The notes under the pieces were generated by a model. It worked only from the letters and a program-made list of their open reading frames with translations. It was not told where the DNA came from and did no database searches. The position numbers were made by a program, and so were the translations under genes. This document shows, in pieces, positions 1 to 25,258 of a stretch of 64,000 nucleotides of DNA. Position 1 is the stretch's first letter. Every line of letters starts with the position of its first letter. Source of the stretch: Marsupella aquatica (Eukaryota > Plantae > Marchantiophyta); the NCBI GenBank assembly GCA_973895155.1, contig OZ316897.1:19657224-19721223 (forward strand). The letters run 5' to 3'.

Positions 1-1269
1 AACGCACACCCAATTTAGCCCCCCTTTGAGAAGGATTCGATAATACTTGACGGCCAGGGGGACTTGTACTCTCAGATGAGTCCGAAGACTCAGAGTGCTC
101 ACTCAGACAAGGACCAAATACTTTTTGCTGAATATTTGGTACACTTAGAGCCTTTCCTTTCAACTTACTCATTGGAGTTGGGGGAAGCATCTCCAAGATA
201 GTGGTTTTACTAGGAGCATCTGGAGAAGTAACAGGACAAGGACAATCCGGGAAGGAAACATCATCCGAAATACCATCAGAATAATCGTCTGACTCATAAC
301 AGGCTGCCATTTCAAAAATTGCACAAAACTCACAAGGGAACACCTAGAACACCAAATGAACTCAAACTGAAAAATCGAAATGAGATATAGTCATGAATAC
401 GAAGCCCCTTTTATAGATTTTGGAAATAACTCAAAAACTTAATTAGCAATAAAATAAGAAAAAGGGCCACGCCCTTCATTAGTAATTAGTGACAAGGAAA
501 GAAATCTTTCATGAGAAAATAGTTTATTATTTATCCAAATCTCACAGGTTTACTTATGTTTTCAGGTCTTCTCATAATTTTATTTTTTACTTAAAGCATA
601 TGTTTTCATGCCAAACTCTTAAGATAGTGTATCAGTAATGCATTGGTCATTTTTACCCCATGTTTTCTTTGATGTTTTTGGAGACTACTCAATTGCAACA
701 AAAAATGTCTTCGATGACCTCTGTTTTTAGAGGTTTTTTTGGTTTTTCTTGTATTTCTTTTACCCATGGTATTTGTTATTTTGGGCCCAAATTTTGACTT
801 TTTACTAGATTCTTTCAAAATGATACTTGATTCCCTTTCATGAATTCATGAAGGGTTACGACCTTCCTGGATCCTGAAGTGGAGGTGGCGAAAGCTTCAT
901 GAATTCATGAACCCAAAAATTAGAAAATGCTAAGTTTGAGACAAATTGGACTGTCAGGTGCTTGGAGTGTGGGCGTGCATCTGCAAAGGGCGAACGGAAA
1001 GGAAGCTTGGCGAAGAGCTATGGTGGGCTGATGCTTGGTGCTGTGGAAAGCTCTTCCCTCAGTGATTGGTGTGGTCTGAATAGGAGTTGGGTTGAATCCC
1101 TAAACTGGAACGAAAATCGGGGGCGGACCAACATTTGGTGCAGCTCTGTAATTTCCTGACTGTTGAGGCGCAGATCGGTCGTGGAACAGAGGATTAATTG
1201 TGGAAGGGAGTGGAAGAAATTTGGTTAGGAGGCAGCAAGATCAAAAGCTGTCGTGCAAGTTTGCGCTCG

Positions 1270-1700
1270 GGAAGGGGATTGTCTCAGGCCTGGGGGGAAA
1301 TTGGAAAAATTCGGGGGAGGGGGGAGAAATTCTTGAAGGCCAGGGGAGGGAGGCAAAATTGGCAAAGGCCGGGGGGAGGAAAAATTGTCGAGGCGCAGCC
1401 AGGGGCGCGAGGAAGAAGCGCCGGCCGAGGGGAGGGGAAAAATTGTCAAGGCGCAGCCAGGGGCGCGGGGAAGAAGCGCCAGCCTCGGGGAGGAAAAATT
1501 GGCAAAGGCCTAGGAGAGGAAATAGTGTCGAGGCCGGGGGGAAGAAAAAGTGTCGGGGCGCGAGCGAGGGGGGAAGAAAAATTGTCGAGGCAAGGGGCGC
1601 GAGCGTCAAAGGTTGGGGGAGGGGAAATAGTCGAAGCGCCAGGGGAGGAAGAAATTGGCGAAGGCCGGGGGAGGAGAAACTATCGAAGGGCCAGGGGAGG
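1270..1700. repeat. Degenerate purine/GC-rich tandem repeat (~30-bp unit, GGGGGAGGAAAAATTGTCGAGGC / CCAGGGGCGCGAGG) upstream of the ParB-MTase gene
   Basis: About a dozen imperfect copies of GGARRAAAATTG(T/G)C visible; explains the low-complexity ORFs at 1198-1841. Confidence 0.75.
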
Positions 1701-2017
1701 TCCATTGACGAAGAGACGAGGTCCAAATCGGGGAGTACATTGCAAACGACAGTAAGTGGGGAGGGGTCGATCAGCTCGAGCATCTGCCAGGGAGGTGAAG
1801 GACATAAGCTAAGCCAAAATCAGGGAGAAAAATACCAGTGACACTCTTCTAAGCGGGAACAACCGTCTAGGCTCAGGCGCTGCAAATTCAACTTCCGACT
1901 CACACTGTCAAGGTAAGAACCTTGCTTCATGAAATCATGAACCTGAATTCTGCAACTGAACTTGAAAAACAAACAGAGCTGACTTTGCATTGTTGGACTT
2001 GATTTCAGGAAGTCAGA

Positions 2018-5000
2018 ATGGTTGAACCAAAATCACAGGAGAAGGTGTTAGACGCTATTTTCGTTGAGCATCCATTGACAGATTTTGGAAACTCTTCCTG
2101 GAGAATATCATTGGGTACAGAATCGTGGAAGAAGCCTTTTTTGATGTTGTGCATCTACGAGACCTTGCCTTCTGGAGGTCTTGGTTGGGTGAATTATGGC
2201 CGGATTGATGTCTTTCGACGAGGGGCTGATGTCCTCAATATGCTTATCACAACAAAGGAGACATCTACACTGATTGCAGTTGACAGTGAGAGATTTTCTG
2301 GAAGAGCTGCGCATTGTTACTTGCCTGATGACATTGAGATGATTATTGAGAAGGTGAAGAATCTGTCTGCAGAAGAAAGCTACAATGAGATTGCAGAGCT
2401 CATTGCTGGTTTTGTGTTTGAACATCATGCCAGCACATTGAAGAGTGCAATTCGAAAGTCTAGGGAGATTCTTCGAAAAGCAGCAGAGAAGAGTGCCAGT
2501 GCCCGTCCACCAAAGTCTGGTCCTTCTTCTGCTCCTTCTGGATCTCGTCCGAGTTTTGTCCCAGCAAGAAAGATGGTTGTTACATCTCCAATATCTGGTG
2601 CTGGTTCACAAATTGCAAGATCACAAGAGGGGACAACTGTGACTGGAGGATCAGCACAGGGCACTGCCGGTACTCGGACTTCATCAAAGAAACGTGGACC
2701 AGAGGGTTCTCAAGGTGCAAGACCAAGTCCACCAAAATCCAAGAAGCAGACGTTAGAAAAAGTCCCCACTCATCTGGAGCAGAAGGCTCAATCTATGTCT
2801 ATGGATGCTCGGGTGGTGTACCAGGAAGGGATTTTGATGAGGTGTGGAGTTCAAGAGGAGACAATCACAATTGACATTGCACAACTTCACCCACCTGTTC
2901 GGGAGAAATCTTTGGAGTTGCTAGTGTACCAAGTAAGGCATATCCATCCCTACTTTCTTACATAGTTGACAACAAGGATGAAAGCAGCTGGAGCTAGTCC
3001 ATTGGCAGCACCTTTTGTTCTCTTGGTTGATCCCAAGGAGTGCCCAACTCGAGCTGATTTTGATTTCTCAAAAAAGAATGATTACCACTATTACGTGATT
3101 GGGGGAAATCATTCTGCTTGTGCAAAGGCAGACCTAGCATTACAATTTCCCAACAACAAGTCGTACAGGAGAGTGCAATCTTGGATCTTTGCAGGTCTGT
3201 CTATCCAGGAAGCAAGGAACTTAGCTTGGAGTCATAATATAGACTCTGAATTTCGTCAACAAATGAGCACCATCCAAAGAGTGAATTACATTCACATGCG
3301 ATTTGTAGAGAATGGATCATCATCAAATGTTGATTTCAAGAAGGAGTGTGCCACTGAAATCAATCTAAAGGACTGGGGTGTACGTAAAGATTATGAGGTT
3401 CTGAATGCCAATGATAATTTATTTCAGTTGGCATTTTGTAAGGATCTTGTTTGGTCTTTCATACGGCAGATCTTTGATAGATGGGAGAATTGTGAGATAA
3501 AAGGACAGAAAGGAGATAAGACCAAGAAAAAGATGTCCAAGTCTGGAGATGCTAAAATGCTATGTGAGGATATGAAGTTGACTGAGTGGAGACACATGCA
3601 GGCATTGAAAGATCCGGACATGATCTGTCCAGTGCTACAAAGGGTTTTGGCAAAGGAATTATCTCTTCAAGAGATGGGACAGGAATTTCAACGACACAAA
3701 TTCCAAATGCAAGTTCAAAAAGCATTTCTTACCTGTCTTCACGAAGAGAGTTGGAAGAATTGCAAAACCAAGTACCCAGAACACTGCACTGATAATGTGC
3801 TGAAGAATTTTGTTCCTGTCTTCCAGACTTGGGTAAGTTTATTTGAGATTGACTGAGCATTTGTTTTACAGTTTTATTCTTAAGTACATGTAGGAATCTC
3901 ATGTACCCAATTTTGTTTTCTCAGAAAGACAGCAGCTCCCGAAAAAAGAAGGGAGAGAATGAAGAAAGCAAAGAGTTGAAGTCCTTCCCAGATAAGTTCA
4001 ATGCACATATTGCACAAGCACAGAACTGGTTGGCAATGAAGAAATCTTGCCAAGAGACCCAGGGAAGTGAACTTCATCCTAATGCTTTTGAGCATCCACA
4101 TTTTGGGGATGTGTACTATGATATCTTTACACACGATGCTCAGAGGTTGCACGAGGTAATCCCATCACGAGCTTACACATTGGCTTTGGCAGATATTCCT
4201 TATGGGTTTGGAATGACTGCTTGTCTTCACGAAGACAATGTTGGATGGGGTGTGGAAGAGGTGACCAAGATGGTTCAGTCCTTCAAGGTTGTCACCAAGG
4301 CAAATCTTTGGCGAATTATCATTCATCATAGTATTGACCAGTATGATGTTGTCAAGACTGTCTTGAAAGCTGAGTGTAATGGTGGTTTCCAGAATTGTAT
4401 TTGGTAAGAAACATTTCAAAAGGTGAATATGTTTTTTTGGTGTTCATGATTTCATGATGTTTGATTTTGAAACAAATCCATAATGCAAGTTTTGGTTTTT
4501 GCAGGGTGAAAGACAATGTTAAGAATGCAGGAGGTGCAAGGCTTAACAGCAATTTTGAGTGTTTCACCATTGGCTTTCATAGTCAGGATGGGAAACGGTC
4601 TTTGGAGCATTTCAATTTTAAGACTAATGAGTCTCAAAATAATGTGGTTGTGTGTCCAGCTGTGACCAATAAGTTGAAACACAACGGGGACAATAAGATG
4701 GTGAACTTTTACCAGAAGCCAAGAGTGTTATTGGATTGGGAAGTTACCCACTTTAGCCAGGTTGGAGACTGGGTGCTAGATATTTGTTCAGGGTCAGGCA
4801 CAGGATTGTCTTCCTCTTTGGCACAAGGAAGACATTGTGTTGCTATAGAAATTGATGAGCGCCAGAGTAGTGTCTTGAAAGGGAGAATTCTAAACCTGGT
4901 GGACAACATTGAGGAAGATGATGGCAAAGGCATGGTGGATTTAGATGTTGATGTTCAAGAGACCATTCTACCAATACTAGAGATAGGAGTTGGAGAGGAG

Positions 5001-5063
5001 GAAATCATAGGACTTGACTCTTCAGGAGTTGTTGGAAGTGTTGAGGAAACAAGAGATGATTAG
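2018..5063 (+). pseudogene. Intron-containing ParB/sulfiredoxin-like domain + beta-class N6-adenine/N4-cytosine DNA methyltransferase; one premature stop
   Basis: ParB-like APFVLLVD...YYVIGGNHS; motif IV-like LALADIPYG; CIWVK..NSNFECF; motif X/I YQKPRVLL..FSQVGDWVLDICSGSGT; motif II GRHCVAIEID. GT-AG introns 3833-3924 and 4404-4504 join the ORFs in frame (Trp codon split TG|G). In-frame TAG at 2963-2965. Confidence 0.85.
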
Positions 5064-5499
5064 CTGAGGATATTTCTGTAAGACTTTTTAGGGTTGTTTT
5101 AGTTGCATAGAAGTAGACTTTACTTGCAAGTTTTGAGATGTCAATGGCCTTGGAGCCTAGACTATGATATAAATGATTGTTTTTGACAGGTCAATTCTAT
5201 GAAAATCAAGTTTTGAATATGTTTTGTCTCAAACATTGATGTAAAGTCTAGTTTAAAATGCAAAGGGTGAATGTCAAACAAATATGCTGATTTTATTGCT
5301 TGTTTTAGGACTACATTTCTAAAAATCATAATTTTTTGGAAAAAGGAATTAAGTCCTTAGACCCATCCTTTAAGGCTTCTTGTTATTGGTGGAAAGCAAG
5401 ATTGAGGGGTACCAAAAAAGGATCTCCAATGTCTCCACCAAAAAGGACCTGAGACTCCTTTGAATGCAATAAATAGGCACTAGTACATTTTTGACAACT

Positions 5500-5995
5500 T
5501 TCCGATACTCAAAATGCGACTATTTTGTCATGTCCGAACCCGAGAGAATCGGACGTTGTCCAATACAAATACCTTCGTAATGTCTGATGTGCACCGCATC
5601 GGATTTAGTTAGTCCGATGTGTTCCCTAACGCAACATCGGAATGTTTCCAAAACTAAATAAATCAGACATTTGACCAGAAAAGTATTGTCAAGGGTCCGA
5701 TCTTCAGGTTATCGGATACAATGTGCGTTAGAGACAACATCGGATATTGTCCGATGTTTATTCCAACGGACATGGTTTTCGTAATAGAATACTACGGACA
5801 TAAATTGCGTAAGGTAAAGAATCGGAAACATTTCCGAAGCGGTCAATATCGGACCCCTCTGTTGGAATATTGGACAAGGGGTCCGATGTTTCCAATATTG
5901 GATGTGAGTGTTCCGATAGTTGTGATATCGGACAATTGCTACGATTGAGCCTTTTGTGCTCCGATGCATATCCGATGCAAGTTTCATCGGATAGA
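5500..5995. repeat. CACTA subterminal repeat array (TCCGA/TCGGA in both orientations)
   Basis: Many TCCGAT/ATCGGA motifs directly inside the TIR, typical of En/Spm subterminal binding sites. Confidence 0.75.
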
Positions 5996-6182
5996 CCATT
6001 GGACACTGGTTATCTTGAGGTTCTTAGTTGAGTGGGGTTGAGAAAAAAATTAGAGATACTTTATGGAATATGTTTTATGCAAGAGTGGACATTGAGAAAC
6101 AAATATAGTGCCGAGAAATATATAATGTCGGGAAAATAAACACAAATATGGTAGGGGGCTAGCTATAGTTGCTACTTACTAG

Positions 6183-9100
6183 CTAAGTGGTGGAGGGGAT
6201 GTCATCATCTTCCACTACAACTACGTTGGATCTATCCTGGACTATGGATCGTGATCGAGGGATATATGACATCACAATAGACCAATTTGAGTCATCCGGA
6301 TAAGGTAGGTAAAACATTGCTCAAGGTGATGTGGGAATGCAAACGGATTTGAAGACCTCCAATTTGAGCTGATAACACTTGTCTTCAACCGAGTAAATCC
6401 GCATGCATCATCTTCATATGTACGATTGTGGCCCACAAGATTCATCTTGAACCATTTGCACTTCAATACCACTTCCTCCAAAGTAGTATGTGCATGGTAC
6501 TTCACAGTTAGGATCTCCTCAATCTTTCCATAATGAGCGATAGTGGACCGAATGGGATTCCTGTCCGATGTGCTGCTCTGTGAATCCTGGGTGAACCAAC
6601 CCATGACCCCACAATCTTGTGTAGCTGCCCTCTTCTCATCAAGTCGTTCCACACAAAAGTGTCTTCCCTTGGACCACATGGCAGTCCGAGTTGTGACTAT
6701 AAGTAGTGGACCATGAACAAGGGTACAAAGCTTATCAGTCACCTCTAGATAATGCAATACACTCTACCCTGTACCCACCAAGGCATCCACTTCTAACAAC
6801 TTTGACTTCATGTATGGGTGAAACTTAGGAAATATCCGTGGTCGTCGACTATTTTGCTTCCCCTCCTCATAAAACGATGTCCACTCCCCTACAACCTCTG
6901 GTGAGTTGTACAACATAAATGTTGTGAGTTGCAAACGCTCCGCTGAGCTTAAGAGACGCTCTTTTGATGCCCCAGTGAGTCTATCATCCTCGTAGTTCGC
7001 CTCTCGTGCTGCCTCATCTATCCATCCCCTAGGAGCATTTGGATCTAGTGTGGCAACTATGTTTGTACAATAAAACATACTCTCTGCTCCAAGATGACGC
7101 TCTGCAATGCTACCTTCCACCCTAGCGCGATTAGAGACATACGATTTCATCACTCCCATATAACGCTCTACCCAATACATCCATCGACAATGCACTGGGC
7201 CTGCAATTACAACCTCACGCACTAAATGTATGAGAAAATGAACCTGACCATCAAAAAATGAGGGAGGGAGTGCCTTCTCCAACTTGCACACAACCTCTAC
7301 TCCAAATGTCTCCATTGCAGCAGTTTCATCTTGGCTCCTGTACCTCCTTCTGACATACCCATCTCAAAAGCTTTCCCAATGACCAAAGGGCATCACGAAG
7401 TTCCTCACTACCCAATCCAATAATCGCAACTGGAATGACATGTTCTAGTAACCGATGATAATCATGTGTTTTCAAGTAAGATGGCCATTTTGGAGAATCA
7501 TCCCCCCCAAATGCTTTTCGGAGATTTGCGCCATAACCTGTGGGAAACCTCATTGACCCAATACGTCTGCAAAACTCAGTGCGCTCTGCCCTACTCAAAA
7601 CCCAAGGAGGATGGATGTTGGGGGGGTCACCAGGGGGGTCCAAAGATGGCCAAAAACCAAGAAGACCATGCATCCCCATCTCCTCACAACTTTCTCTCTA
7701 ATTGTGGTTCTTTTCCCCATATAGATGACGAATCAATGATCTGCCCACATTCCCCTCAATGTGCATCGGATCTAACAAGTGATTAATGGGCAACTCTGAC
7801 CAATATGGCAATTGTGACAATGCAGACAAACGGGTCATGCCACATTGGAGAATTTGTAATGGATCATCTAGGTCTTGAACTCTTTCCCATACCTCTCTCC
7901 AATATGTTGGACCCTTTCGCTGAGGTTGAGGACGAGTGTCGGGTTGGCCATCTTCAGTATCATACAAGAAATGATCACTCCTCCAAGGATGGTCTTCTGG
8001 AAGATATTTGGTATGGCCAATGTAAACTATCTTACGCAAAGTACTTGACTTGCGTCTTGCCACACCCTCCAAATCTGGTCCGCACGAAGGGCAAGCTCTA
8101 TAGCCTGATGTTTGCAATCCAGAGATACCCTAAACCCTAAACCCTGCGCTTGATCAATACACAACCAGCCAATGAAAGTAAGTTAAATGATACAAATTAT
8201 AACCAAAAAAATTTAATTAATAAGCATGGTGTAAATAGATAGCAATGGAAATAAGGGTTTAATACCCTACCTGGCAAATCATGCATGGTCCACATAAGAA
8301 TCATGGCCTTCATGGTAAATGTGCGGGATAAACCTCCAATGTTGTCACGTCCGTCATAACAATCCACCCCTCTCCAAAGTTTCAAAAGCTCATCAATCAA
8401 GGGTTGCAAGTAAATGTCAATCTTTTTTACTTGCTTAGGACCAGGGATGATCATTGAGAGTAGTAGATGACCTTTCTTCATGGCCATCCATGGAGGGATA
8501 TTGTAATTTGTGAGAACTACAGGCCATACTTAATATGGCTTAGCTTTACCTGCTAATGCAAAATGACTGATACCATCTGCTGCCAAGCCAAGTCGAACAT
8601 GTCGCGGGTCAGTTTTGAACTCACCCCATCTGCCCTCTACAAATCGATTGGCAAGAGAGTCTACCATCATCCGCATGGTACTAGAGTCTGTACCCATATC
8701 CAAACGATGTTGTGAGTGCCAGACCGTATACTCAGCCAACTCTGCACAACGATATTGATGGCGCAATCGAGGGATGAGAGGAAAGTACCGCATAACCTTT
8801 TGAGGCACCTTCCTCATCAACATGTCATCACGGAACCGCGGCTTCTCACACATAGGACATATAATTGCATTCTCATGCTCACCCCTGAAAAGAATGCAAT
8901 CATTCACACATGCATGTATCACTTCATATTTTAGGCAAATGGACTTCAACACCTGTTTAGCCTCCTTCCAAGAGCTTGGCATGTTGTTGCCTGGTGATAA
9001 AATACGATCATGTAGGGTACAAAAAACATCATCCAAAAGTAGGTTGCTTGCCCCATGTCTTTGTTGCACATTCAACAACAACATTATTGCTAAGAGCCGA

Positions 9101-9413
9101 GATAGCCTACTCCCCTCAAATATGCGAGTACGAGCATGACGTTGAGCCTCTTCCCATTCCTTTTGCTGCCCCCCCTAGAGACATGCGGATGAGTGTTGTT
9201 GTCATCCTGGCTACCCATGTCCTCCATACCAATGTCCGCATCATTGTCATAGAACTGATCCATGAGCTCATCCATGGCCCTCTCCTTGTCAACATGATCT
9301 TCGGTTGGATTGCCCCCCTCATGCTGTACCTCAGTCTCCTCCCCACGATTGGCCACCATGGCCTCAACAAGGTGTTGCCGCATAGCTCGTGATATTACCC
9401 CAATATCAGGCAC
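6183..9413 (-). pseudogene. CACTA TnpD/Tnp2-type transposase (Transposase_21, DUF4218 and DUF4216-like regions), frameshifted
   Basis: Motifs IHACVNDCILF, CPMCEKPRF, MRYFPLIPRL, DPRHVRLGLAADG, IIPGPKQ..IDIYLQPLIDELLKLW, WTMHDLPG, HLLDPMHIEGNV, LKTHDYH, PPSFFD..H..GPVHCRWMYWVER, HYGKIEEI, VLKCKWF; multiple stops and frameshifts. Confidence 0.92.
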
Positions 9414-9857
9414 TACATATTGGTTCTATCATACAACATGCATCCATGTAATGTCATCAACATCAATCTTGCCAACAATCTCATTAATCCAACATTAGAA
9501 ATGGAAAATAAATTTCAGATATATATATGTATATGTAAGCCCAAGAAACTAAGTTGGACGAGAACATAGAGACAATTTTCTCGGGGGGGTCACTTCCACG
9601 GAAGTGACACATCACGTGCGACGAAGTATAGGCCCATTTAAATGGGTGTGGCGGAAGACTTCCAAAGTTTGGTGGAAGAACACATAGGGCATGTTTTATT
9701 GATTGGTCGACTTTAAAGAACACATAGGCCTATTTAATTGCAAAAAATACTTTCTATAAAGTTTTTAGGGGTTTTTTAATAAAAAATGACAAAACTTTAA
9801 GAAAGAAAGGGCTTTGCAAAAAAATATTTTTCACTTTAAAGTTAGGGGGGTCAAACC

Positions 9858-10828
9858 CTAAAACGTCGCACGCGATGTATGACCCTCCATATAGTGACCC
9901 CCCCGAGACAATTTTGGTGCATCCCTGTCATAATCACACAATAACTCATCTCTTGCTCTAATGGTCCTAATGGCCACTGTCATGATGTGGTCATCCATAT
10001 GTTTCACAAAATATGGGTCTCTAGGTGGACCAAACATTTGGATCCACTCTACATTAGCCTCCAAATCTCTACCTCTACCTGTGGTACTATTGATGTATCC
10101 TGCTAAATTTCCATTCCTAACAGGGTCACCGTCAATCATCCGACAATGCCACGGCCTAGTGAACACCTCGTCTGGGTCTGAGTCCATCCTCAATGCATAC
10201 ACCCCCCAACTTGGGTGTTGACGCAACCAAATGTTCCAACTCTTTGTGTTATATACAGCCCCAATATAAGGGAAAAGGTGCTCTCCATCGTAGCCACGTC
10301 TCCATGGCTTTGGAGGGACAACAATGTCATCCAAAGCATATAGACCATATCCTATATCAGCACCAATAGAGGACTCCTTCACTATCCAAGGACGGCCCCA
10401 TATCTCCACAGGTTCATCAATAGGAATGTAATCTGGAAATTTGAAGACACTGGGAGAAAAGTCTTTCAAAACGTCTGCAGCCCTGCCAGTGAGATAGGAT
10501 ACTCCAAATCGGCCCTCAACGCCAATGTAATCTACATTTGTTGGAGGACGATCACTACCTAACACCCCCTCCCGGATGTCTATGTGGTCCACAGGCTCGT
10601 ACTGCCGTCTACATCTATGAGACCGTGCTCGTGTACGTAGGACTCTTGAAGTCCCAACCTCTGGCCGAGATACTGGTTCTCCCTCTACATGCTCATGTAT
10701 GGGGATAGGAGCTGGGGGGCTAAGAGGAGGATGGGCAGGGGGGCTGCAAGCAAGTCTCTAGCCCTTGCTAGGAATCCTTCTAGACACACAGCCTCATCAA
10801 CCGAAGGAGGTGGGGGTCTACGGGGCAC
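9858..10828 (-). pseudogene. SET-domain protein-lysine methyltransferase exon inside the CACTA element (one frameshift near 10740)
   Basis: GYGLYALDDI (motif I), FPYIGAVY, GNLAGYINST (RxxNHS equivalent), ANVEW, AIRTIRARDELLCDY (ELxxDY); AG acceptor at 10829-10830. Confidence 0.8.
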
Positions 10829-10917
10829 CTATTTCACCACACAATAAATTAGTGTTATTTAAATGCAAGCCCAATTGGAGTTTCATGAATGGAATTAAAG
10901 GGGAGACATATATATTA

Positions 10918-11149
10918 CCTGGCTAGGCAAGTACCCTGGTGTATCACCCTCATGACGGCCATAGTTCTCAATGTGCTCACAAGTCTCCCAGGCATGTCGG
11001 ACCACAAGTCCCTTGCATCTCACACACCAGCAAGGTATGGGCCCTAGTGGAGCACAAGAACGCTCAAGAGGAGGGGGTGGAGGAACCTCCCCCTCTGACG
11101 AGCTTGTGTCTGAGTCTGAATCCGACGTGGAACTATCGGATGTAGACAT
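10918..11149 (-). CDS. First coding exon with CACTA transposase-associated Cys/His domain (PCWCVRC...HIENYG)
   Basis: ATG at 11149; CxCxxC...H..G pattern of the transposase-associated domain; donor CAG|GTAAT near 10918. Confidence 0.65.
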
Positions 11150-11994
11150 CTACATATCATACACATCCAACATGTAAGGCGGATTCAACAACTTATCATG
11201 TTTAAAACCACAATTAAAGAGATATATAAACATCAATTGCCCTACCTCAATGATACCCGTGCTTTGCCGTGCCTACTGGGCTGTATTCTCTACACACAAG
11301 GTGTGGGATATCCAAAATCTCTGCAGGGTGGAGATGAATATGGTTACACAAATGTTGCATAAATGCAAAAAAGTACTTGACTGACTTTTGGCACACGATA
11401 TATCAAACTTGCCAAAGCAGACCTCAATGTTCCAATCCAAAATGGATGGATGGGCCAGAGAATTACATCATACCTCATGGATGCGCGGTCTCACACTGTG
11501 CATAGTGCATTGTCCAAGAACAAAACCCTACCTAGCTACCCCCCTCAACCCAAAAAAAACAAACCTAGCTACCCCTCGATCAAAACCTAGGTACTGCACA
11601 TAAAATCCAATCACAACCATTAGTGTAACAAAGGCTTAACATTATCCTCAAAAAATGTCTAACAATATCCTATGTATTAAAACCCTATACCAATAAATCC
11701 CAAAAATCAGTCTATTCATTAAACTGCAAAATTCTTTGATCTTTGGACATTTAGGCACCAAAATATATATATTTGGGCATAAGAATTGTACATTTGGGCA
11801 ATGCGAGTTGTACATTTGGGCACCAGATGTTGTACATTTGGGGGATCAAGATTGTACATAGGAGAAAATGAAATATTAATTTGGATTCTAAAGAAAAACA
11901 TTTGGGTGATAATAATGTAAAATATGTTGGATAAGAAGTAGAACTTACTTATATTGATTCAATTTGACTAATAGAATATAAGTGTCTACTAACT

Positions 11995-12127
11995 TAGCTT
12001 CAATATGATCTCTACCCATATAACTAGTAAAGCTTCAATATGATCTCTACCCATATAACTAGTAAAGCTTCAAATAATATGATCTCTACTCATATAACTA
12101 GTAAAGCTTCAATATGATCTCTACCCT
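11995..12127. repeat. 35-bp tandem repeat, ~3.7 copies (AGCTTCAATATGATCTCTACCCATATAACTAGTAA)
   Basis: Directly visible tandem copies. Confidence 0.85.
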
Positions 12128-12587
12128 TAGCTAGCTAAATTAACCTTCTACTTAGTTACTAATTGAGAGCATTTAATATATTAAATTTGAATGATACCTA
12201 GTTTACTATCCATTTAGACAAGTAATTTGTTACATTCTAAGCAACTCGAGTTGAAACTAAGGTTTACTACAGACTAGACAGTACTAAGAGGCACTCACAT
12301 CCTATCATAGATATTAAGACTTCATGTAATATATAGTCTGTATTGATATTATAAAGGTATCCAAGTCCAATTACCTCCACCTATTCAAACTAGTATCCCA
12401 AAATATTATAATAATTAGTTACTTAAATAGATATACTACTTAGTACTAACCAGTTACAGTAAGTACTAAAGACATGTCTGATTCCAAACTAATTGACATA
12501 GACTCCCTCACTCTGACATGTCTAATTCCAAACTAAATGACATAGACTCCCTCACTCTGACAGAGTGACTACTAAAAAACATTTGAC

Positions 12588-15500
12588 TTACTCAAAAATC
12601 CCTTCCATGTAGGTTTTGAGTGTTTTCAAAACATTCTTGGGAATGGTCAAACCTCTATCAATTATATTTTCTTCTCTAGAGCGTGACTTGAATCCATACA
12701 TAGCAAAATTAGCAAATTGCCAACGTTCAGTGGCACTATCAAACCCAGGATCCACCTCCCAAGTCTTAGTGGTCTGAAAGCAATGTGAATATCGCACATG
12801 ATCCGGTGCATCATCCTTACCATGTTTAGGCCTCCACCATTGCACTTGGAACATAGGAGCATACCATGTACTAGTAGGAGAATTCTCATTGCATTGCAAG
12901 TCTCCTGAAGGAACTTCATGGTTGGGTCCACAACACCCAAAGCTCTCACCAACCAGAAACGTTCTTTCCCATTCTTCTTTTCCCATTCATCCTCTAGACG
13001 GAGAAATACAAAGTGACCCTCTTGAATGTCCTGCAGAGGAATCCAACGTGCAAGTTCTCGCTCGTGTCGAGCACCAACAAATGTTGCAACTTGATCCTCC
13101 ATCTCTTCCAGGTACTCATTCTGAAGCTCCACCATTTGTGGATTCTGTGTACTACTACTAGGCTCCCCCAATGGTTCAGAGGTTCCTGTACTATTAACCT
13201 TGTAACCAGTTCCGTGGTTGGTTTTTGGCCAGAATTCATATGTCAATGCTAACTATATTTCTGCCTCCCCTTCAATTGTAAGCTCCCCAGATAATACTTG
13301 CACCACCATCTCCCAATATTTCACCAAAGGAAATCGCTCACGATATGCTATAGAGGTCTCATCCTTACGTACAACTCTTCTTCAAAAACTCAATGTAACG
13401 ATTAAGGAATGGGATGATTTCTTCAACCTTGCCTCGTACATCCCCGGAGATGGGTTTTGCAAATGGTTGACCTTCTGGTAAAATGAGAGCATTGGTGCTG
13501 GAATCAGTTCTCCAAATGGACCTTCCGGTTGGAGGGTACCAAGGTTGTTTCACATGTGCTTTGTATTGATATATTGGAACATTATCTCTCATAGAGAAAA
13601 GAAATGTCACTGGTTTTGAGTGACCCTCTATGTCTTTTACCTTGAAAGTTTTTAAAAACTCTTTGTAAGCTGCAACCTCTTGGATCAACCGTGGGACAGG
13701 ATGAATGCTTTCACACTCCCAAACCTCAGCCATCAACCCCAAGAGGGTAGAAACCTCCTTGTACTTCACTTGGTTGGATACTTTTGAAAACAATGCATCG
13801 ACATCCTCATGGGTGTGACCAACCATGAGAAACGACATCTGCACTGTTTCAAAAACCCCTCTACTAACAAGCTCACTGCAAAATGCCATCACGTACTGGT
13901 TTTTGTTATCTTTCCCTGAATTATCCATTTGCAAGGTCAGGTGCCTTGGCAATGGTTTGAAAGAGGTAGACGTAGCCTTGGGATCAACACCAAAGTCATC
14001 TTGGTCATCTTCAGCTCCTTGAAATCTAGCAATTGAGACTTTTTTGGGTTCTAAGTAACCTGCGAGAAATGCTTCAAAGTCCAAAAGAGATTGAAAAATT
14101 GGCCTCGTTGCAGCCCAATATAATCCTTCAAGGAGGTCTCCAGATTTGTCCCCCTTGTAATCCTCCAGATCTCTAAGGCACTTTGCCAATGATGTCACTT
14201 GTGAAGTCTGCATCTCCCGGCCAAAGCCCAGTGAAACTGAAGTGAGCATACACTTCGAGATCCCTTCCATGGGTCAACATCCCAATGAGCGCAATGGGGA
14301 GCGGTTGACCACTACCAGACAATGATTTAGGAGTGGGGACCAACCTAGGGATCCATGTCTTGGCCTGGTCCATCTTGTCATGTATAATGCAAAGATAGTT
14401 CTCAGGATCCTTCTTCGCAAGAACCCTATGAGCATAGTAAACATATCTCCTAGACATTTGCTCACGAAGATGGCGAGCTCTTCTTTCCTCAATCTCTAAA
14501 CGCTCTTTCTTTCTCTTCTCCCGCATCAACTGATCTTTGAACTCAGTGCAAAGTGTACACTTTGCAAATGCACTTCCCTTGTGAAAGTCAAAATTCATGA
14601 AGGACTCACTCCAGAGTTTATACATAGTGTTTTCACTCACCTTCACGTAGCCATCTAATTCCATTTTTGAGTATACCTCCTCAAAAATCTCTTTCTTCGT
14701 GAAACAAGATGGAAGTCTGTACTCAACCGTGTCAGTCCCGTGAGACCCTCCATAGGGAAGATGCGGCATGGGTTCTCCGTTTTGGGTTAGAATGGACTCC
14801 AACAAAGCATGAGCATGCAAGGTGCTTCCCCGTGTCTTGTGTGAACCCTTGTTTCCGTGGAATCCAACCGTGCAACCTACTTCATATTGATTTTTGTAAT
14901 CATAATACTTGGCAGTGCTGAATCCATGCATTTTAATAAATGCACCCTTGCAAACAAGTCTACTTCTTACAACAAAATATCCTTTTGTCTCCACTTCCTT
15001 CTCCCTATAGCCAAAAAGAGTAAGAATGTGACTGGTTTTGTTGTCGCTTGACATCCCATGGTATTCCCTCCTTATCGCTTGTAGGTCTTCTCTCGGCATG
15101 CTGAGGCAACACTTCAACTTACAACAACCTTCTCTTTGGATGGAGTCAATTTCCTCCTCTATGATTTTCAGTATGCCCCGAGACTCCAAGTGCTTCTTCC
15201 TTTTTTCATCTGGGTTGACCTTCGTTCTCTTGATGAAATTATACGAGCGCTTCGAAAACTCAGTGTCACCTTTCATATCTACCTCTAGATGATCTCGACC
15301 ATCAATAATTGGTTTCGGAGAAACCTCTTCAATGAGATCCAGAAGAAAAATACCCCTTGATATCAGCAGAAGTGAACGGACGGCCCACCTAACAAGACCA
15401 GGCACTCCTGGGGAGATATTTGGGAAAAATAGAGGGTCAATCATGCGTGTGACAACAACCCCAACGTGATCTGGTCCAAGAACATCATCATCAATTGCAC

Positions 15501-16182
15501 CTGACTCGAAAGGAACTGTGATGATGCCAACCCCCACTTTGGTCCGATTATCCTCAACATACAAAATTTTCCACCTCCTTGGTCATCCAATTAGAACGCA
15601 AACTATAATCGTTGAAATTATAATTTGAAAAAACATCCCGTGTGGACAGGTCGTTTAGCATATCCTGGGAAGAACTCCTCCGAGTAACATCCTTTAAATT
15701 CTAGAATACAAAAGTGTCCAATGCTTCCTGAACGGTATCGGCTCCATTGTGAGGAAAGGGTAACCTCTCCCTTCCTTGAAAAACTTCACATATTTTCACA
15801 CTAATCCTAGAAGTGCCAAGTCTTTCATTGTGACAGGTCTCATCGGGATTCGTCTTGAACACAAATCCACGAGCCACAATCTGATTGCCGATCCAGAGCT
15901 CGACTTCATCACCAGATATAATCGAGTCTCCAAAACTTCCCACCGAAGATTTGTCTGGTACAAAACCGGGAACCGTATCCTTTGTAGAACAAGAGACATC
16001 CATTTGTGTTGTCGCTGGAGTTGACTGTGACTTCAAATATGCAAAAGAGGCATCCGCAGGAGTCGACAGCATCAAACAGGGTCCTGATTGGCGGCAAAGG
16101 GTAAGGAATTTCTCGTGATCCCTCATAGCACTTCTCAATGAGAACTCCTATACGATTACTTCCCAAATCAACATTACGCACT
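12588..16182 (-). pseudogene. Sola-like DDD transposase with N-terminal Tnp1/En-Spm-like repeats (copy A)
   Basis: IIHDKMDQAK, LQMDNSGKDNKN, FLMVGHTHEDVDALFS, GCCKLKCC, AKCTLC; several frameshifts; collinear with 27297-30981. Confidence 0.8.
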
Positions 16183-16394
16183 GAGAATCCCAAATGGGAT
16201 ACGCCGTATCTGGACCGCCATTAGACTCACAAGAGAAAATGTTGTTTTCCCAGGAAAGCTAAAGCTTGAGTCGGTGTCCGTCACTGAACGGCAGCAAGAG
16301 CTTCAGTGCGTGTTTAGTCAAACTACGCCTGCGAAACAATCAGCAATCCATAAGACTTTTCCCATCATTCCAAGAAAACTCTAGGTAGATACCA

Positions 16395-16870
16395 CATGGG
16401 ATACCCCGTACCCCACTTCGCATCCAATCTCTTTTTTTAGCTAAAGAGAAATCAAAACTGGACATTTGAAGGGTGAATCCCAAACGGGATACGCCGTATC
16501 CCATTTCGCATTCAACGTTGAGGTTTTGACATTTGGAGTCTAAGATGCTTCATATTTGGAGGTTGGATGTGACATGGGATACCCTGTATCCCACTTCGCA
16601 TCCAACCTCTTTTTTTAGCTAAAGAGAAATCAAAACTGGACATTTGAAGGGTGAATCCCAAACGGGATACGCCGTATCCCATGTCGCATTCAACGTTGAG
16701 GTTTTGACATTTGGAGTCTAAGATACTTCATATTCGGAGGTTGGATGCGATATGGGATACCCCGTATCCTACTTCGCATCCAACCTTCTTTTTTAGCTAA
16801 AGTGAAACAAAAACTGGACATTTGAAGGTTGAATCCAGTTCAAACTGGACATTTGAAGGTTGAATCCTTG
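16395..16870. repeat. 178-bp tandem repeat (~2.5 copies), each unit with two GGGATAC-N3-GTATCCC palindromes
   Basis: CTAAAG anchor at 16441, 16619 and 16797; isolated palindrome copies also at ~16195 and ~17184. Confidence 0.85.
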
Positions 16871-17379
16871 AATCCATGAAGATTCTCACTTGTTAGTCAA
16901 ATCTGATTTTTGGGGAATACAAGTTTGTATAGACGGTGTGCATTCGTCGAGAGTAAGAGGATACAGAGCGAGAAAAAATGAGTGGAAAATTCTCAAGCGG
17001 TGATCTCCTATTTATAGTTTTCTCTCTGACCGTGGTTAGTATTTGACTGCAGTTGCATCGCAGTCGGTTAAATGTTACCGTTGAGAAGAATTATTTGGGA
17101 ATATTCTTGACGGGTAAACCAATATCGGCACTTTTACTGCGTTTGTTTTAATTTTTTTTGGAATTCCGCGGTTGGATCCAAAATGGGATATGCCGTATCC
17201 CATCTTCGTATTCGTGTCGATTTTTCCCATTTTTTAAATTTGAAAAACTAGTTTTTAGGGGGAATACTAATTCTGTATCCAAGACTTTTTTGCTTTAGAA
17301 ATTTTTTTTGCCGCGGGCAAAATGAGAAGTGTGGTCACACTTCTCGTTTGGTCCGTCACTGTGTTGCCATTGATATCAT

Positions 17380-17765
17380 TCCTTCTAATAGGTTGTATAT
17401 CATCCTAGTTAACTTTGTCTAGACAGTATAGTCATTCTAAGGCAAATTTTCTTACTTAGTTAGATATCTTACCCAAGCTAAATGTCTTAAATATAGATGC
17501 TATCCAAGCTTATATGTTATTACTAGATTCTATCTATTTTCCAACCAAATGAACACTTTTGTCACCCAAATGTTTTTTAATATCATCCAATTTAATATTT
17601 AATTTTCCCAAAATTTCATTTTTTGTCTCCAAATTTACATTTAATGATACTTGAATTTTCATTTTTCATCTTCCAAATTTACAATTTTCATGCCTAAAAC
17701 TATGTTTTTGAATCTCCAAATTTCCCTATATCCTTTATAATTTCAGTTTTAATGAATATAGTGAT
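17380..17765 (+). mobile_element. Isolated 3'-terminal fragment of the Sola-like family (copy C)
   Basis: Collinear with 35175-35557 and ends in the same TIR (TTTTAATGAATATAGTGAT at 17765). Confidence 0.75.
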
Positions 17766-18357
17766 TGGAGAAATCATTTGGTTAAATTTCAGAAAGTAGG
17801 ATGTTTGGATCTCAATTGTAATTATTTTGTGATAGACCTCCGGGTAGACCAACTATTAGCCTAAGTAAGTCATAATTTGAACCTCCGAGTTGATTCTGAA
17901 GTATCACAATATTCATTAAAACTGGAAATTTAAAAGTCCAAATTATGATCCTCAAATTTACATTCTTGTCTCTAAAAAGTCCATTAATTTTGCTCCAAAT
18001 AAACAAGTTTTCAAGACTAAATATACACTCTTTTTGGTTTAAAATTACACTTTTGCACTCCAAATTTGATTTTAATCAATTAATCATAATACAAAAAATA
18101 TTAATATTAATTGTATTTGAAATTAAATAGATAAGTGACAAACATGTATCATTTGGTCAAAAACTCATGATTAAATTCAAAGTGAGATTAATCATCTCAT
18201 TTATCATAACATATATTCAAGGTTGGCTAGCCATAATGTCGATCCTACTCCAATGGTCAAGCTAGTGTAAAGTCCAAAGTAGTTCTATGACCTGTGAAAT
18301 AGAAAAATGATTGCATGACTCCAATCTTGTGTCCTACAATATACAGAAACATAATGA

Positions 18358-19433
18358 TTAATCATCTAAAATTTCAAATTCTATGTCTCCATGAATATGT
18401 CTACATGACTGATTTGAACAAGTGAGTCGCTCTCCATTTGGGTCATATAGTCTGTCACGAGTGCAAGTGTCTTTGGGATAACGGTTTTTAAACTTAGAGG
18501 TGAGATCCCTAGTCTTTAGAACTTCCCAGACAAATCGGCGAGGATTTTCTCTGAAGGGACCTGCATAAGACTCGCCCAAACAGTTGTTGACCACATCTTT
18601 CATATCATCTTCGGTCAGGTTCTCAAATGTAGGGTAAGATTGTACCATATCCCTCACTTCCCAACATATCTCATCTCCAGTGACATCCAAGATGGTATAC
18701 TCAATCTTGGAACGCCAAATCTTATTTCCCCACTTATGGGAAAGTAAAGCATAGATTGCAGCATTACTTTCACGGTCATCATTTATATTAACAAATGACC
18801 AAAGTGGATTGTTGACAGATATATATTGTCGGATGTCATAAGCCTTCCACAATTTTCTAAGGAATGGCCAAAGTATCTCTGGTAGAAAATTGTCACTCTC
18901 GGCAATGTGTGATCTGAAGGGAGTTGGGAACAAACCACTATACTGTGGATTTGCAAAAGCCTTCACTGGAGAGTCATCAATAAGTAGAGTGTTTGTATCA
19001 TCATACTTGTCTCCAAAATGACTCCACACCACACGCAAATCCTTCAACATAATATTTGCTTTCCCATCTGCTACGTCCGGTCTTTGTATGCCAGTATCAA
19101 AAGCATCTTCTTGTGTGAAAACAAATTTAAATTGCCTCCGCTCCTCTTCTTTGAAAATCAAATTCATCATTTCATTAGTTCTTGGCCTCCCCGCACAAGT
19201 CCACAATGCAACATCAAAACCTTTGAAAGCCACCTCCAAAAATTGGTGCAACCCTGGCCTTTCCACGTACATGAAATTGAATCCACCCCGTCTCCCCCAA
19301 TGCACACCCCGCACAGTTGTTGTAGATCTTAACGGTCCCGAGCTTTTTGTTTTCACACAATCCCAACAAATTTTGTTCAGGTCCAAAATCAAGAGTTTTC
19401 TTCTTATATCAGAGTGCAATTTAGGAGTGAAAT
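18358..19433 (-). CDS. FCP1/NIF-family HAD phosphatase-like domain with C-terminal CCCH-like finger; probably the last exon of the cargo gene
   Basis: KLLILDLNK, ERPGLHQFL, FDVALWT, MLKDL..VW, NTLLIDDSPVKAFANP; C-x14-C-x4-C-x3-H near the C-terminus. No ATG of its own; TTTGCAG acceptor ends at 19434. Confidence 0.8.
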
Positions 19434-19581
19434 CTGCAAAGATCCAAATGAATCAAAATTATATCTAAAAGATATAAAAGAAGAACTTAGGGTCGAACCT
19501 GGATCCGACCCGACCTAATGGGGAAAACAAACATTTTATTTTTGAATGTCAAAGCATTTTGATATATCAATGTAGAAGTAC

Positions 19582-22500
19582 CTTGCTCAAATGCTTTGTC
19601 TTGGACCAGGGTACCGCTTGCTGAAGGTAGACCAATAATATCCTTCGATGGAAGAGATGCTATGACAAAACTTTGGTCTGTCCATATATGATTTCCAAAC
19701 ATAATATTTTAGATTATTGTGAAAAATAGAAGAACGAAACCATAATATTAACCTCCACTACTAAATGACCCATATTCATCTATCATTTTATCACCTAGAT
19801 CACTTTGGATATCAGAATTGACGCCAACAGGAAGCTGCTCCACCAACGTTGGCGGCGCAAACACTGGACTCAATCTCAATTTGTCTATTATGTAATCAGG
19901 TTTGACCATTAACTTAGGCGCACCAAGTGGAAGGTTGTCTTCAATTGCTTGTGCAATACCAACTTGTAGGTCCGTGGTGGGTGTAGTGGCCCCAATATTC
20001 TGCCAACCTGCATCCAATGTGCACGATACCTGCGGTCTCTCGGGATGCAATTTTGATACTTCAGGGTTGAGAGGATTTGCTGGAGGGTCACCCTCAGGGC
20101 GACCCGACATCACTATGTTGAGTTGAGGTAGCCCTTCAACACCGTAGGTAGTAATGCCAACCATTTCTGTTGCTCGAGCATCCCAATTTCCGCCAAAATC
20201 CTCCTCTACCATAGGACTTGAACCTCCATCATCATGCTGCAACTCACCATCCTCAAGGTCAACTCGCTGAGGGCCCGGTTGGGGGTTGTCCATAGGCCCG
20301 CAAAGAACACTTAGATGAGCTCTACTAGGACCATGTACTCCCATCCGCTCTTTCATAAGGGAGGGAATCCTGTTGCACAAAACCCTTGCATATGCTTGGG
20401 TGAAATGGTGTTCTTGCAAAGTGTCTGAATAGACAAAACAATCTTGGTATGCCAACAAGGCCACCTTCAAAACCTGCCCTCCTGAAAAAAAATCGAGGAC
20501 AGTCTCCCCCTCACCGGAAAAACATTCAATAATATTTTTGAGCATGTGTCGGGGCTTGGCATGCGGATTGACAAATCCTCCTCGACTTCCGACCATCTCA
20601 AATATTGGAGCTTGCCGCAATAAATCTGCCATATCAAATGCGAGAGACTGCTCCTCTGTCTCATTCTCTTTTCCCTTGCTTTTCTCTTGCTTGTCAGCCT
20701 TCACTTCAATATTGAAATCACAGTCAACATCGAGGTGAAAACTAAATTTTGAATTGAACTCTGGCTTAAACAATTGATTCCAATCAAAATTGTCTTCACC
20801 TGTAATTCCAGCAAAAATGACACATTGGCATCGCCTCTTCCAATAACTCTGGCGTGGTTGTCTTCATTAGATTCTCACTGAAGAACGTCAAGACAGGCTC
20901 TGTTCGTGTGCGCCCAACTCCACCAAATTGTTTGCAGTACAACCCGTCTAATCTCACCATTAGACTTTGAGGGAAAGCCTCCTTCACAATGTTCTTCCTT
21001 AATAAACTGCTAAGGTAGACCTCCCCAGCTGCTCTTCGCAATTTTGTCAACTCAAGTTGAGATCCCAAGGCCGGCATGATGTTGACCACCGAAGCCCACG
21101 ATGTCCCCCCGGGAAACTTCTCCTTGTGCTTCTCAACAAAGTACTCAACAATGACTTGCTTCAATTTAGTCATTACCTTGATGGTATGAGCCATATCTGG
21201 CATTGACACCAGATCCATCTTGTTGGAGGCATCTTTCTTGAGAAGTGCTTTCTTCTCATAAACCGCGGTCAATATATCAATGATATCCTTAGAACTGATC
21301 TCCCCTTCAAAACATCTAAAAAGAGTTGGCATGACCAACTTTAGTGGCCGCGGCCCACCATACTCTCCTGCCCCGCCAGGGAGCTTCCCTGCCAACCAAT
21401 CCCAACAAACAGTTTGCCATAAATGGAAAAGCTTATCCTCAACAAAGAGCAACCAAAAAATGGCTTTCAGGCTCGACTTTCCCATTGTTATCTTTGCGAG
21501 GGCAACCAATCCTGCATTTACATTCATCCACCAAAAAACATGTTAGATATTTAAACTTAGAAACTTCAACTAGCTTCTCTGCCTCGCCCCTAGAGCGAGG
21601 CAAAGAAAATGACAAAGCCATATGAAAATGGTTGGGGCAATCATTGTATTCATAGTTCAATTCCGTTTGGATCGCTCCAAGAGCGAGGCAAAATTAAACT
21701 ACAGTTCCAACTAATGAAAATGTTTACCTGGTATTTCTGGTTGTCTATACTTTGGTTTGTTCCAATTCCTGGACGCGGTGGTTTCCCACATTCATCAAAT
21801 TGCCTTCTCGCATGAACAACTGTCTCTAGAAAACAAGACTTAAACTGCATGGTCTGATTTACTGCATTTGAAAGGCTCAAGTGCTCAACCAAAATTGCCC
21901 TTGGAGTGAGGTCTGATAAGATCCTCGCTTTCCAATATTGGAGTTTGCTAGCAAGATCAGTTAGCTTGGCATCCTTGTCTGCCCACCCTTGAATCCATTG
22001 TGCAGCCTTTGCGGAATGTTGCCCACTGATTGCAAGAAATTGTATCTCTTGTTTCTTAACACCAAACAAAAACTGCTTCCGATCGCGTGCGGTATTGTCA
22101 AAATGTAACAACTGCTTAGTGCGCTCTAGAAATGGAATCAAATCTGCAACATGTGGTTCCTGGCCAGGGTTTTTCATCATTGATTTTGCTATCTCTAAGG
22201 CATGAGCCTGGTTGAACATCTGATACACAAAAACTGCAGTAGGCGGAAGAATACTTTTAACCGGGATTTCAAAAACCTCCCTGATTCCAAAAGTGTAGTA
22301 TTGCTCAATGTTCGGCAAAGCTTTCTGCCCCTCCAATACATCTCGTTCCTCTGGTGCATCTGTTGGGCATGTATCATCCTCCGGATCCAAGACCAACCTT
22401 GCTTTTGACGCTGACACGGGCTTTGATTTTCCAATCTTGGCCTTCTTCTTGGGCTTCTTGTCGGAGTCCTTATCTTTCTTCTTCAACGCCGCCTTTTTTT

Positions 22501-23792
22501 CTCTAGTACTTCCTTCACTCCTTGGCTCTCTTTGTTTTCTCTTCTTTTGTGTTTCAGCCGGCGTCATTTCTTTGGCCTTCATCTTCATCTTCCCCTTACC
22601 TCGATGCTTTTCTTCCTTCTTCTTTTGAGTTGAAATCCACTTCATGCAAGCATCTTCGTCAAACTCATCAGAGAAAATAAAACTCTTATCAATTGCTTGC
22701 TCATATGAAAAGCGTGTTGTTTCAATCATCCTCTGGACAACCCATGTGTTAGGAAGATCTATAAGGTCCGGATGATCATGCATGTACCGCTTCACAGAGA
22801 GGAATCCAAAGACATCATCAACCCCACTTAATTTGAATCTTCCATGCCTCTCAAGAACATCCTCTGCAGTGAACCCATCTGGAAGAAATCCCATTGAACA
22901 AATACTAGCCTCCGAGCGTGCTATCCACTCCACGTTGATAATTGACGAGTACATCTTGATTGGCAAGTAAAGTCTCATCCACTGAGATCTTTCTCTGGAT
23001 TCAATAATGATTGTAACATTGCGGTTGTCACTGCAATTTACAAGGACCATAGGGCCCAACGCAACTATCTTCTTGTTGTTCATTGTCTCAGCAGTGATTG
23101 CCTTGATACAAATCATTGACAAGTCATTCTCCATGATCCCTACTTCAAGTGCCCACAAAAATCCTGCCTTATCTTGTCCAGGGAAAATAAAGTCCTTGAC
23201 ATCCTCGGCCATAATATTTAACTCTGGGGATCCAAGTTGTTATCCTGGCAAAACAAATTGAAATGACAAACATTAAAGCAAGAGATCTTCTATGTCGCCT
23301 CGCCCCTAGAGCAAGCTGGAGACAAGGTCTACATCAACAAACATGTGGGTTGGGTCGCTCCTGGAGCGACCCTAAGAAAACTTAAATCAAGGTCCAACCA
23401 ACAACAAATTTGGATCGCTCCTGGAGCAACCCTAGGAAAACTTAAATCAAGGTCCAACCAACAACAAAGTTGGGTCGCTCCTGGAGCGACCCTAGGAAAA
23501 CTTAAATCAAGGTCCAACCAACAACAAAGTTGGGTCGCTCCTGGAGCGACCCATGACAAATCTAAGGCAAGATAGAGCGACCCGTCAAAGACTAACTTGC
23601 ATCAATTGTTGAATCATACTTACGTGGAACTGTGATATGAAATCCCTTTGAGGCGGCCAAAGCAGATTCCACCGACATCTTTAGTAAAGTGTCTTGAGAA
23701 TCATACTCAAAGATTTTACTAGAATCAAAGTTCAAGGACTGCCCAGAACTAGAAGTGCTAGTAGAATCATCAGAACTAGAGGAAGTGGCCAT
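19582..23792 (-). pseudogene. Second, divergent ParB-like + partial amino-methyltransferase gene (multi-exon cargo of the Sola-like element)
   Basis: ParB-like FLAISGQHSAKAA; SAM-binding half HAKPRHMLKNIIECFSGEGETVLDFFSGG; N-terminal region and layout parallel the gene at 2018-5063. No motif IV visible; frameshift near 20830. The 5' exon boundary is tentative. Confidence 0.7.
23347..23552. repeat. 60-bp tandem repeat x3.5 containing the palindrome GGGTCGCTCC-T-GGAGCGACCC (probably intronic)
   Basis: Near-identical units recur at exactly 60-bp spacing. Confidence 0.9.
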
Positions 23793-24939: not shown

Positions 24940-25258
24940 CCATTGCCTCACCCTCGGAGCGTCCCTCAACCGCCTTGCCCCTAGAGCGACCCTCCATCGC
25001 CTCGCCCCTAGAGCGACCCTCATTCACCTTGCCCCTAGAGCATCTCTCCATCGCCTTGCCCCTAGAACGACCCTCATTCACCTCGCCCCTAGAGCGACCC
25101 TCATTCACCTCGCCCCTAGAGCGACCCTCATTCACCTCGCCCCTAGAGCGACCCTCATTCACCTCGCCCCTAGAGCGACCCTCATTCACCTCGCCCCTAG
25201 AGCGACCCTCATTCACCTCGCCCCTAGAGCGACCCTCATTCACCTTGCCCCTAGAGCG
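24940..25258. repeat. 27-bp tandem repeat x~11 (CCTCGCCCCTAGAGCGACCCTCATTCA)
   Basis: Directly visible array. Confidence 0.92.

Follow-up and report, generated by a model that had tools for sequence, protein, structure and literature searches.

A SET-domain exon in the transposase gene of a liverwort CACTA lineage, with a predicted two-way splice

In maize En/Spm and in Arabidopsis ATENSPM3 (AT2TE20205), CACTA transposons whose general anatomy has been described (PMC4158355), one gene gives rise to TnpA and TnpD by alternative splicing, and TnpA of Spm3 acts as an anti-silencing factor (bioRxiv 10.64898/2026.08.24.746577). TnpA of Spm binds DNA through a helix-turn-helix and, according to that report, seems confined to flowering plants; the Arabidopsis Spm DNA-binding domain is described in the same preprint as a tandem helix-turn-helix, not a CxCxxC motif. 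Anti-silencing encoded by the element itself is also known in the MuDR family: VANC of the VANDAL elements is the product of a separate gene, its function has been tested, and the available text mentions no SET domain (PMC12730594).

SET genes are known in several DNA transposons: HarbingerS, oomycete MuDR, and Helitrons (PMC12730594; bioRxiv 10.1101/2025.02.11.637652). These belong to other superfamilies and other hosts, and their SET is described as an accessory gene. Within the EnSpm/CACTA superfamily, red-algal Plavaka elements of 17-19 kb carry PAG2, a separate accessory gene in which SET (PF00856) is fused to an N6-adenine methylase, and which is proposed to be a chromatin modulator (bioRxiv 10.1101/2025.02.11.637652). 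SET cargo in DNA transposons and alternative splicing of CACTA genes are therefore both known. No plant CACTA transposase with a nested SET exon that shares its first exon turned up in the literature searched; Repbase Reports and preprint supplements lay outside the scope of that search, and a survey of 962 Spm proteins might hold an example. The main text of PMC13547354 contains no occurrence of 'SET domain'.

The window analysed here is a 64,000-nucleotide stretch of repeat-rich eukaryotic DNA from the liverwort Marsupella aquatica (contig OZ316897.1). Its minus strand holds a CACTA element that reads, in order: a CxCxxC exon, a SET exon, the transposase exons, subterminal repeats, and a CACTA end (Table 1). 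As in En/Spm and ATENSPM3, one transcription unit is predicted to yield a transposase and an accessory protein; unlike in Spm, the alternative product is a SET domain, encoded between the transposase N-terminal Cys motif and the transposase core. The element joins the HarbingerS, oomycete MuDR, and Helitron captures as a DNA transposon with a SET methyltransferase gene, and shares with PAG2 the carriage of SET (PF00856) by a CACTA-superfamily element. Unlike in PAG2, with which it was compared by description only, the SET stands alone and is nested in the transposase gene of a Transposase_21 element with CACTA ends; in the family's SET proteins that were scanned, no N6-adenine methylase is joined to SET. 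SETMAR (Metnase), a fixed host gene encoding a constitutive SET-mariner fusion, likewise has SET and transposase sequence in one gene. Unlike SETMAR, the unit described here is mobile, and its two products are predicted to be mutually exclusive. The proposed role is analogous to that of VANC: a factor encoded by the element that would act on the element's own epigenetic state.

Table 1. Parts of the CACTA element in the window, and the divergent ORF of the distant family
Feature	Position	Strand	Remarks
3' terminal inverted repeat of CACTA element	5478..5491	+	flank on that side is AGG
Subterminal cluster of TCCGA-type motifs, both orientations	5492..5990	.	21 motif matches, 5501-5986
Last transposase exon(s)	6180..8129 (lower end approximate)	-	PF02992, PF13960
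First transposase-core exon	8269..9425	-	phase-0 acceptor at 9425; two catalytic Asp motifs
MITE, 328 bp, 15-bp TIRs, 8-bp duplication	9580..9907	.	inserted just after SET core
SET exon: Pro-rich linker and SET domain	9908..10828	-	phase-0 acceptor at 10828
First coding exon, 77 codons, 231 nt, phase 0	10919..11149	-	GT donor at 10918
Residual 5' non-coding part of element	11150..11705	-	bounded by end of DUF7869-type element
Divergent ORF, distant family	L021 386-1615	-	likewise in L004, L007, L008, L023, L025

The exon order given in an initial annotation of this locus stands: the CxCxxC exon, whose end it had put at 10918, runs to 10919 and is followed by a GT donor at 10918, an AG acceptor opens the SET exon at 10828 (one nucleotide from the approximate position first given), and transposase exons and a CACTA end follow. 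The first exon encodes an acidic, Ser-rich stretch and then CxCxxC...H, a Transpos_assoc-like motif of transposase N-termini; an AG immediately precedes its ATG in the window. The core exon is 76% identical to P0014 of the leafy liverwort Calypogeia fissa, the closest named relative of the transposase, and the last exon(s) carry the CxxC, HxxH, and final catalytic Glu motifs along with DUF4218. The DDE core of the transposase is of the Transposase_21 kind and includes C(2)C and H(3-4)H; among its motifs, at 8592, 8292, 8096, 7472, and 7183, are residues that we take to be the catalytic triad. The clustered subterminal repeats are those of CACTA/EnSpm elements. Termini of the CACTA...TAGTG form are present at the 3' end in the window and at the 5' end in four loci of a distant family, that is, in different copies.

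The first 14 nt of the inverted repeat at 5478 are identical to the right end, at 39265, of a second CACTA element. This 1.6-kb non-autonomous element (37631-39265) shares that terminal sequence, is flanked by a 3-bp duplication (AAG/AAG), and retains part of a transposase that is 73% like 8888-9092. It interrupts a long direct repeat, likely an LTR; the other copy of that repeat (58927-60148, 97-98% alike) represents the empty site.

On the 5' side, no matching terminal inverted repeat was found in the window, where the element abuts a DUF7869-type element at about 11705. Contigs of the examined runs match the residual 5' part, and one X3 contig fits 11483-11705 and then continues into other sequence. 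The neighbour is one of two opposite DUF7869 transposase-like units (11705-17766 and 27228-35557; PF25273 in the first) that are 80% alike and have related ends starting CACTA-like, possibly with a 2-bp AT duplication. Beside units of this type lie a 178-nt tandem repeat with internal inverted repeats (16388-16867) and a 27-nt tandem array (24861-25312).

The initial annotation had also noted that no TnpA-like ORF precedes the terminus. Between the transposase end and the terminus, the sole ORF of at least 100 aa is indeed a 104-aa frame within the subterminal repeats; this finding cannot be extended to the whole element, because the window lacks the 5' inverted repeat. In the distant family, the stretch from the 5' inverted repeat to exon 1 holds, on the opposite strand, an ORF of about 400 aa or more. 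This candidate ORF2 matches nothing in Pfam or the Atlas, and the window has no counterpart of it. Because of it, SET does not simply replace ORF2.

The window copy is dead, and neither product can be made intact from it. Its SET ORF (10757-9858) is real, matching Pfam PF00856 with E 6.5e-5 and 23.7 bits (cut-off 22.4), as the initial annotation had it; a 1-nt shift near 10742, however, puts this ORF in a different frame from exon 1, and the stop at 9858 is supplied by the MITE. Exon 1 spliced at 10828 runs into a stop at codon 124. One contig each of X2 and X7 (two of the four runs compared) has one extra base near 10742, and the homologues P0001 and P0002 stay in frame through this region; one X3 contig matches the window there without a gap and may be the window locus itself. 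The core exon has one frameshift and one stop, and the reading frame of the last exon(s) is interrupted by stops and frameshifts. The MITE site is empty in X2 and X3 contigs (two of four runs), which omit 336 nt; very many contigs of the examined runs match this MITE family.

The SET exon is not peculiar to this copy. Its closest named relative is P0001 of Calypogeia fissa, at 70% identity. A metagenome scan yielded 27 loci, most of them 41-45% identical to the window SET; they are counted as one distant family, since the copies are 94-100% alike and some are possibly one insertion. Exon 1 lies upstream of SET in all 16 loci that extend far enough, the other 11 beginning in the SET exon or no more than about 130 nt from its acceptor. 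A transposase start follows SET in 15 of the 18 informative loci, nine others ending too early to be scored; it is missing in L017, L026, and L027, each with a truncated SET exon. The CACTA 5' end is found about 3.1-3.4 kb upstream of exon 1 in four loci, with three different flanks. In each of the six runs examined, out of eight listed, many contigs match the SET region, as many do the transposase, although depth is not copy number.

A profile search returned 121 homologous SET clusters at 50% identity; the ten looked up include three Riccia sorocarpa and two C. fissa models. The SET tree was built from 44 rows picked from the longer homologues among the 121. CACTA-linked members fall on at least five branches inside a 26-row group (support 90/93), one of them, P0062, being called CACTA-linked on partial exon-1 likeness only. 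With context known for a minority of rows, the tree shows neither a single origin nor co-evolution. Distant members with the Asn-Ser motif and no visible CACTA link (P0111/P0170 of Calypogeia fissa, P0113, P0125, P0126, P0129, and P0130) may belong to other elements or to host genes; P0111 has Cys/His repeats at its N-terminus. The nearest Atlas models are two streptophyte SET clusters, of 50 and 126 members. No relative of the SET was found in viral contigs (0 of 38 candidate stretches), and viral SETs resemble the family by fold only, at 8-21% identity, which leaves a viral donor unsupported. The window element is a decayed copy of a CACTA lineage that is likely one of bryophytes.

Selection was gauged by comparing the window copy with L004, a locus of the distant family in which exon 1 and SET read through without a stop. 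For SET, dN is 0.58 and dS about 2.1, indicating purifying selection; as dS is saturated, the resulting ratio of about 0.27 is rough. Identity by codon position is 0.56/0.66/0.37, and dN for the transposase is 0.35-0.46. The SET exon is almost certainly element-borne and under selection. Uniqueness to one copy, neutral decay, and a target-site duplication of its own had all been named by the initial annotation as observations that would speak against such an exon, and none of them was borne out. A captured host fragment in neutral decay, or a nested element, is accordingly a very improbable and largely refuted account. The broken state of the window copy and of most retrieved copies is what it would predict; it fails against the retention of position and phase at 42% protein identity, a dN far below dS, the 121 homologous clusters, and the spread of CACTA-linked members over at least five branches of the tree. 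Neither a terminal inverted repeat nor a convincing duplication flanks the SET exon in L004, where a 9-nt AT-rich direct repeat was considered as a target duplication and judged to be chance.

Reading phase speaks for a shared first exon. The 231-nt, phase-0 exon 1 is present in the window and in six of the seven loci where the exon start was found, and the SET and transposase acceptors are both phase 0 in the window family and in the distant family. Exon 1 would therefore fit either product. Two phase matches have a chance expectation of one in nine, and the window and distant families are not fully independent in this respect because they share ancestry. The intron before the SET exon measures 90 nt in the window and about 117 nt in the loci; with the MITE set aside, about 125-145 nt separate the SET stop from the transposase acceptor in either family. 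Exon 1 and transposase are in frame in three of four loci tested. L004 is the only locus seen with a stop-free exon 1 and SET, and most retrieved SET-bearing copies are broken.

The acceptors themselves required some choice. The TGTAG near 9413 that the initial annotation had proposed for the transposase was abandoned: a splice from exon 1 to 9412 loses the reading frame and meets a stop after 82 aa. The in-frame acceptor is GATAG, opening the exon at 9425. X7 contigs part from the window at 9429 and enter a pyrimidine-rich tract, as would be expected at an acceptor. Alternative AGs that restore the SET frame (10757, for example) were rejected, because the start at 10828 is conserved in homologues.

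Database proteins bear on the same question. CxCxxC forms the contiguous transposase N-terminus in the single-ORF relatives P0021 and P0022; exon 1 matches the N-terminus of P0021, which bears PF13963, with a pairwise E of 4e-4, and the exon-1 counterpart in L008 matches PF13963 with E 0.011, below the cut-off. Gene models that join CxCxxC to SET exist in C. fissa (P0001, with the same Q/V junction) and in Riccia sorocarpa (P0057 and P0069), and P0059 has both in one ORF, on a 2.1-kb run contig of unknown DNA or RNA origin. The models, which are predictions, conflict: P0091 joins SET to Transposase_21, and P0091, P0117, P0128, and P0132 splice part of SET into the transposase. Among SET-bearing elements, no database protein has exon 1 joined directly to the transposase core. 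Among the matches listed from the contigs of six runs, no joint corresponds to the exon 1-SET or exon 1-transposase junction, and no listed contig spans either stretch compared. A search for longer SET homologues gave 0 of 1231 candidates, a result of little weight; fused models did emerge from the later profile search. The alternative splicing around exon 1 proposed by the initial annotation is thus supported for the family, through phase in two distant families, but not for the window copy, which makes neither product intact. Judged from the sequences, such splicing of SET and transposase is very probable.

By its modelled fold, the product of the SET exon is a SET-domain protein. An AlphaFold2 model of the homologue P0001 (pLDDT 76) matches solved SET domains in Foldseek with E 3e-7 to 8e-6, and SET enzymes with Z 10.2-10.9 (best rmsd 2.1 across 119 residues). 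COMPASS, PRC2, SET7/9, and SETD8 tie within that range, so that no substrate can be inferred from it. A sequence search of the PDB gave SETD8 matches only, at non-significant E values of about 0.7, and a Pfam scan detected no pre-SET, post-SET, or reader domains. PF01555 is absent from the SET proteins scanned; the PF01555 ORFs of the window lie elsewhere (4458-5063 and 19748-20863).

Those ORFs belong to two accessory clusters, at 2003-5063 (+) and 18358-23239 (-), that encode N6/N4 DNA methylase domains (PF01555, E 9e-8 and 3e-5). Also encoded there are a NIF phosphatase (PF03031) and proteins in which a ParB-like GxH was recognized by eye, with no Pfam match. The clusters resemble the PAG cassette as described for red-algal Plavaka. 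A Gypsy-like retroelement contains, at 48160-55871, a stretch of about 3.9 kb that is duplicated in tandem (94% alike) and encodes long coiled-coil ORFs.

Among 35 aligned SET proteins, the key positions are nearly invariant: G193 in 33, G195 in 34, Y/F221 in 35, G223 in 35, N280 in 32 (Gln in three), S281 in 35, E328 in 35, and Y333 in 34. The family thereby has GxG, YxG, and ELxxxY, presumably SET motifs I, II, and IV. Motif III is the exception, with Ser in place of His in all 35 proteins. The NS reading of the window copy, pointed out in the initial annotation, is therefore a family trait, not decay. The His of the NH motif matters for the activity of several SET enzymes, but it is not known from PR/SET enzymes such as PRDM9 either. 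PRDM9 is active (PMC13137591).

These elements suggest a simple mechanism, in which the shared first exon would be spliced to either of two acceptors, mutually exclusively, SET being the last exon of its own transcript. Splicing to the near acceptor, followed by an end of the transcript in the short intron after the SET stop, would yield a CxCxxC-SET protein about 345-375 aa long; the far acceptor would yield the full transposase. The SET isoform is likely, if less surely than the splicing, to be an active SAM-dependent lysine methyltransferase. The initial annotation had named it a lysine methyltransferase and chromatin writer, a claim that draws on the SET fold and motifs. The N-terminal domain held in common with the transposase could bring the SET isoform to the element or to the transposition complex. 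Against such targeting by exon 1 stands the domain that binds DNA in Arabidopsis Spm, which is not of the CxCxxC type. Once there, the isoform would most probably mark histones, thereby sustaining the element's expression or mobility and acting as the regulator that TnpA is in flowering-plant Spm elements. That its substrate is histones in the element's own chromatin is a tentative proposal. Taken whole, the model of a conserved SET exon in the first coding intron, two proteins by alternative splicing, and a self-marking methyltransferase is moderately favoured.

The main rival keeps the same splicing and changes the target. The SET isoform might methylate a non-histone protein, such as the transposase or a host silencing factor, or might be a weak binder that competes through the shared N-terminus. 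The His to Ser change in every protein aligned and the failure to detect a pre-SET, post-SET, or reader domain point this way, as does the tie of SET7/9 and SETD8 with histone complexes in the fold search; SET enzymes are described as having many non-histone substrates (PMC13137591). The SAM-pocket glycines, the motif-III Asn, and the terminal Tyr hardly vary, however, which makes a dead enzyme less likely, and nothing here tells histone from non-histone substrates. This non-histone or weak-enzyme role has a minor but real share of the probability.

The other two accounts concern the transcript, and both are improbable. SET might be spliced onward into the transposase to give one fusion protein, a mobile analogue of SETMAR, as in P0091, P0093, P0117, P0122, P0128, and P0132, which join all or part of the SET exon to the transposase. 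The junctions of these models vary, however, and most cut out parts of the SET core; an in-frame stop ends the SET exon in L004, P0001, and other complete homologues, and inspection by eye found no donor before the stop that is common to the window and the loci. Marginally less probable still is an independent SET gene that lies within the transposase intron, has a start codon to itself, and bypasses exon 1. In the distant family, codon 4 of the SET exon is an ATG, and many database homologues start within the exon. Those internal starts, though, come from gene callers on short contigs, and the window SET exon has no ATG at its start. Moreover, the gap from donor to exon is only 90-117 nt and ends in a conserved in-frame AG acceptor, and in P0059 a single ORF covers both domains. 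Alternative splicing from a shared first exon remains the preferred reading.

The SET proteins form a distinct group with a fixed Asn-Ser motif, and some of the 'SET domain-containing proteins' in liverwort annotations are parts of transposons, not host chromatin genes. It is conceivable, though at present doubtful, that a CACTA lineage across liverwort classes has turned its transposase gene into a two-way switch, whose SET isoform marks histones in the element's own chromatin to escape silencing; it would then be a self-targeted histone methyltransferase encoded by a land-plant transposon. The intact exon 1-SET frame in L004, together with the liverwort models P0001 and P0057, makes a direct test possible. 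Plant transposons known to counter silencing use DNA-binding regulators (VANC, TnpA); a lysine methyltransferase made as a splice isoform of the transposase would, if true, be a different and directly testable anti-silencing strategy.
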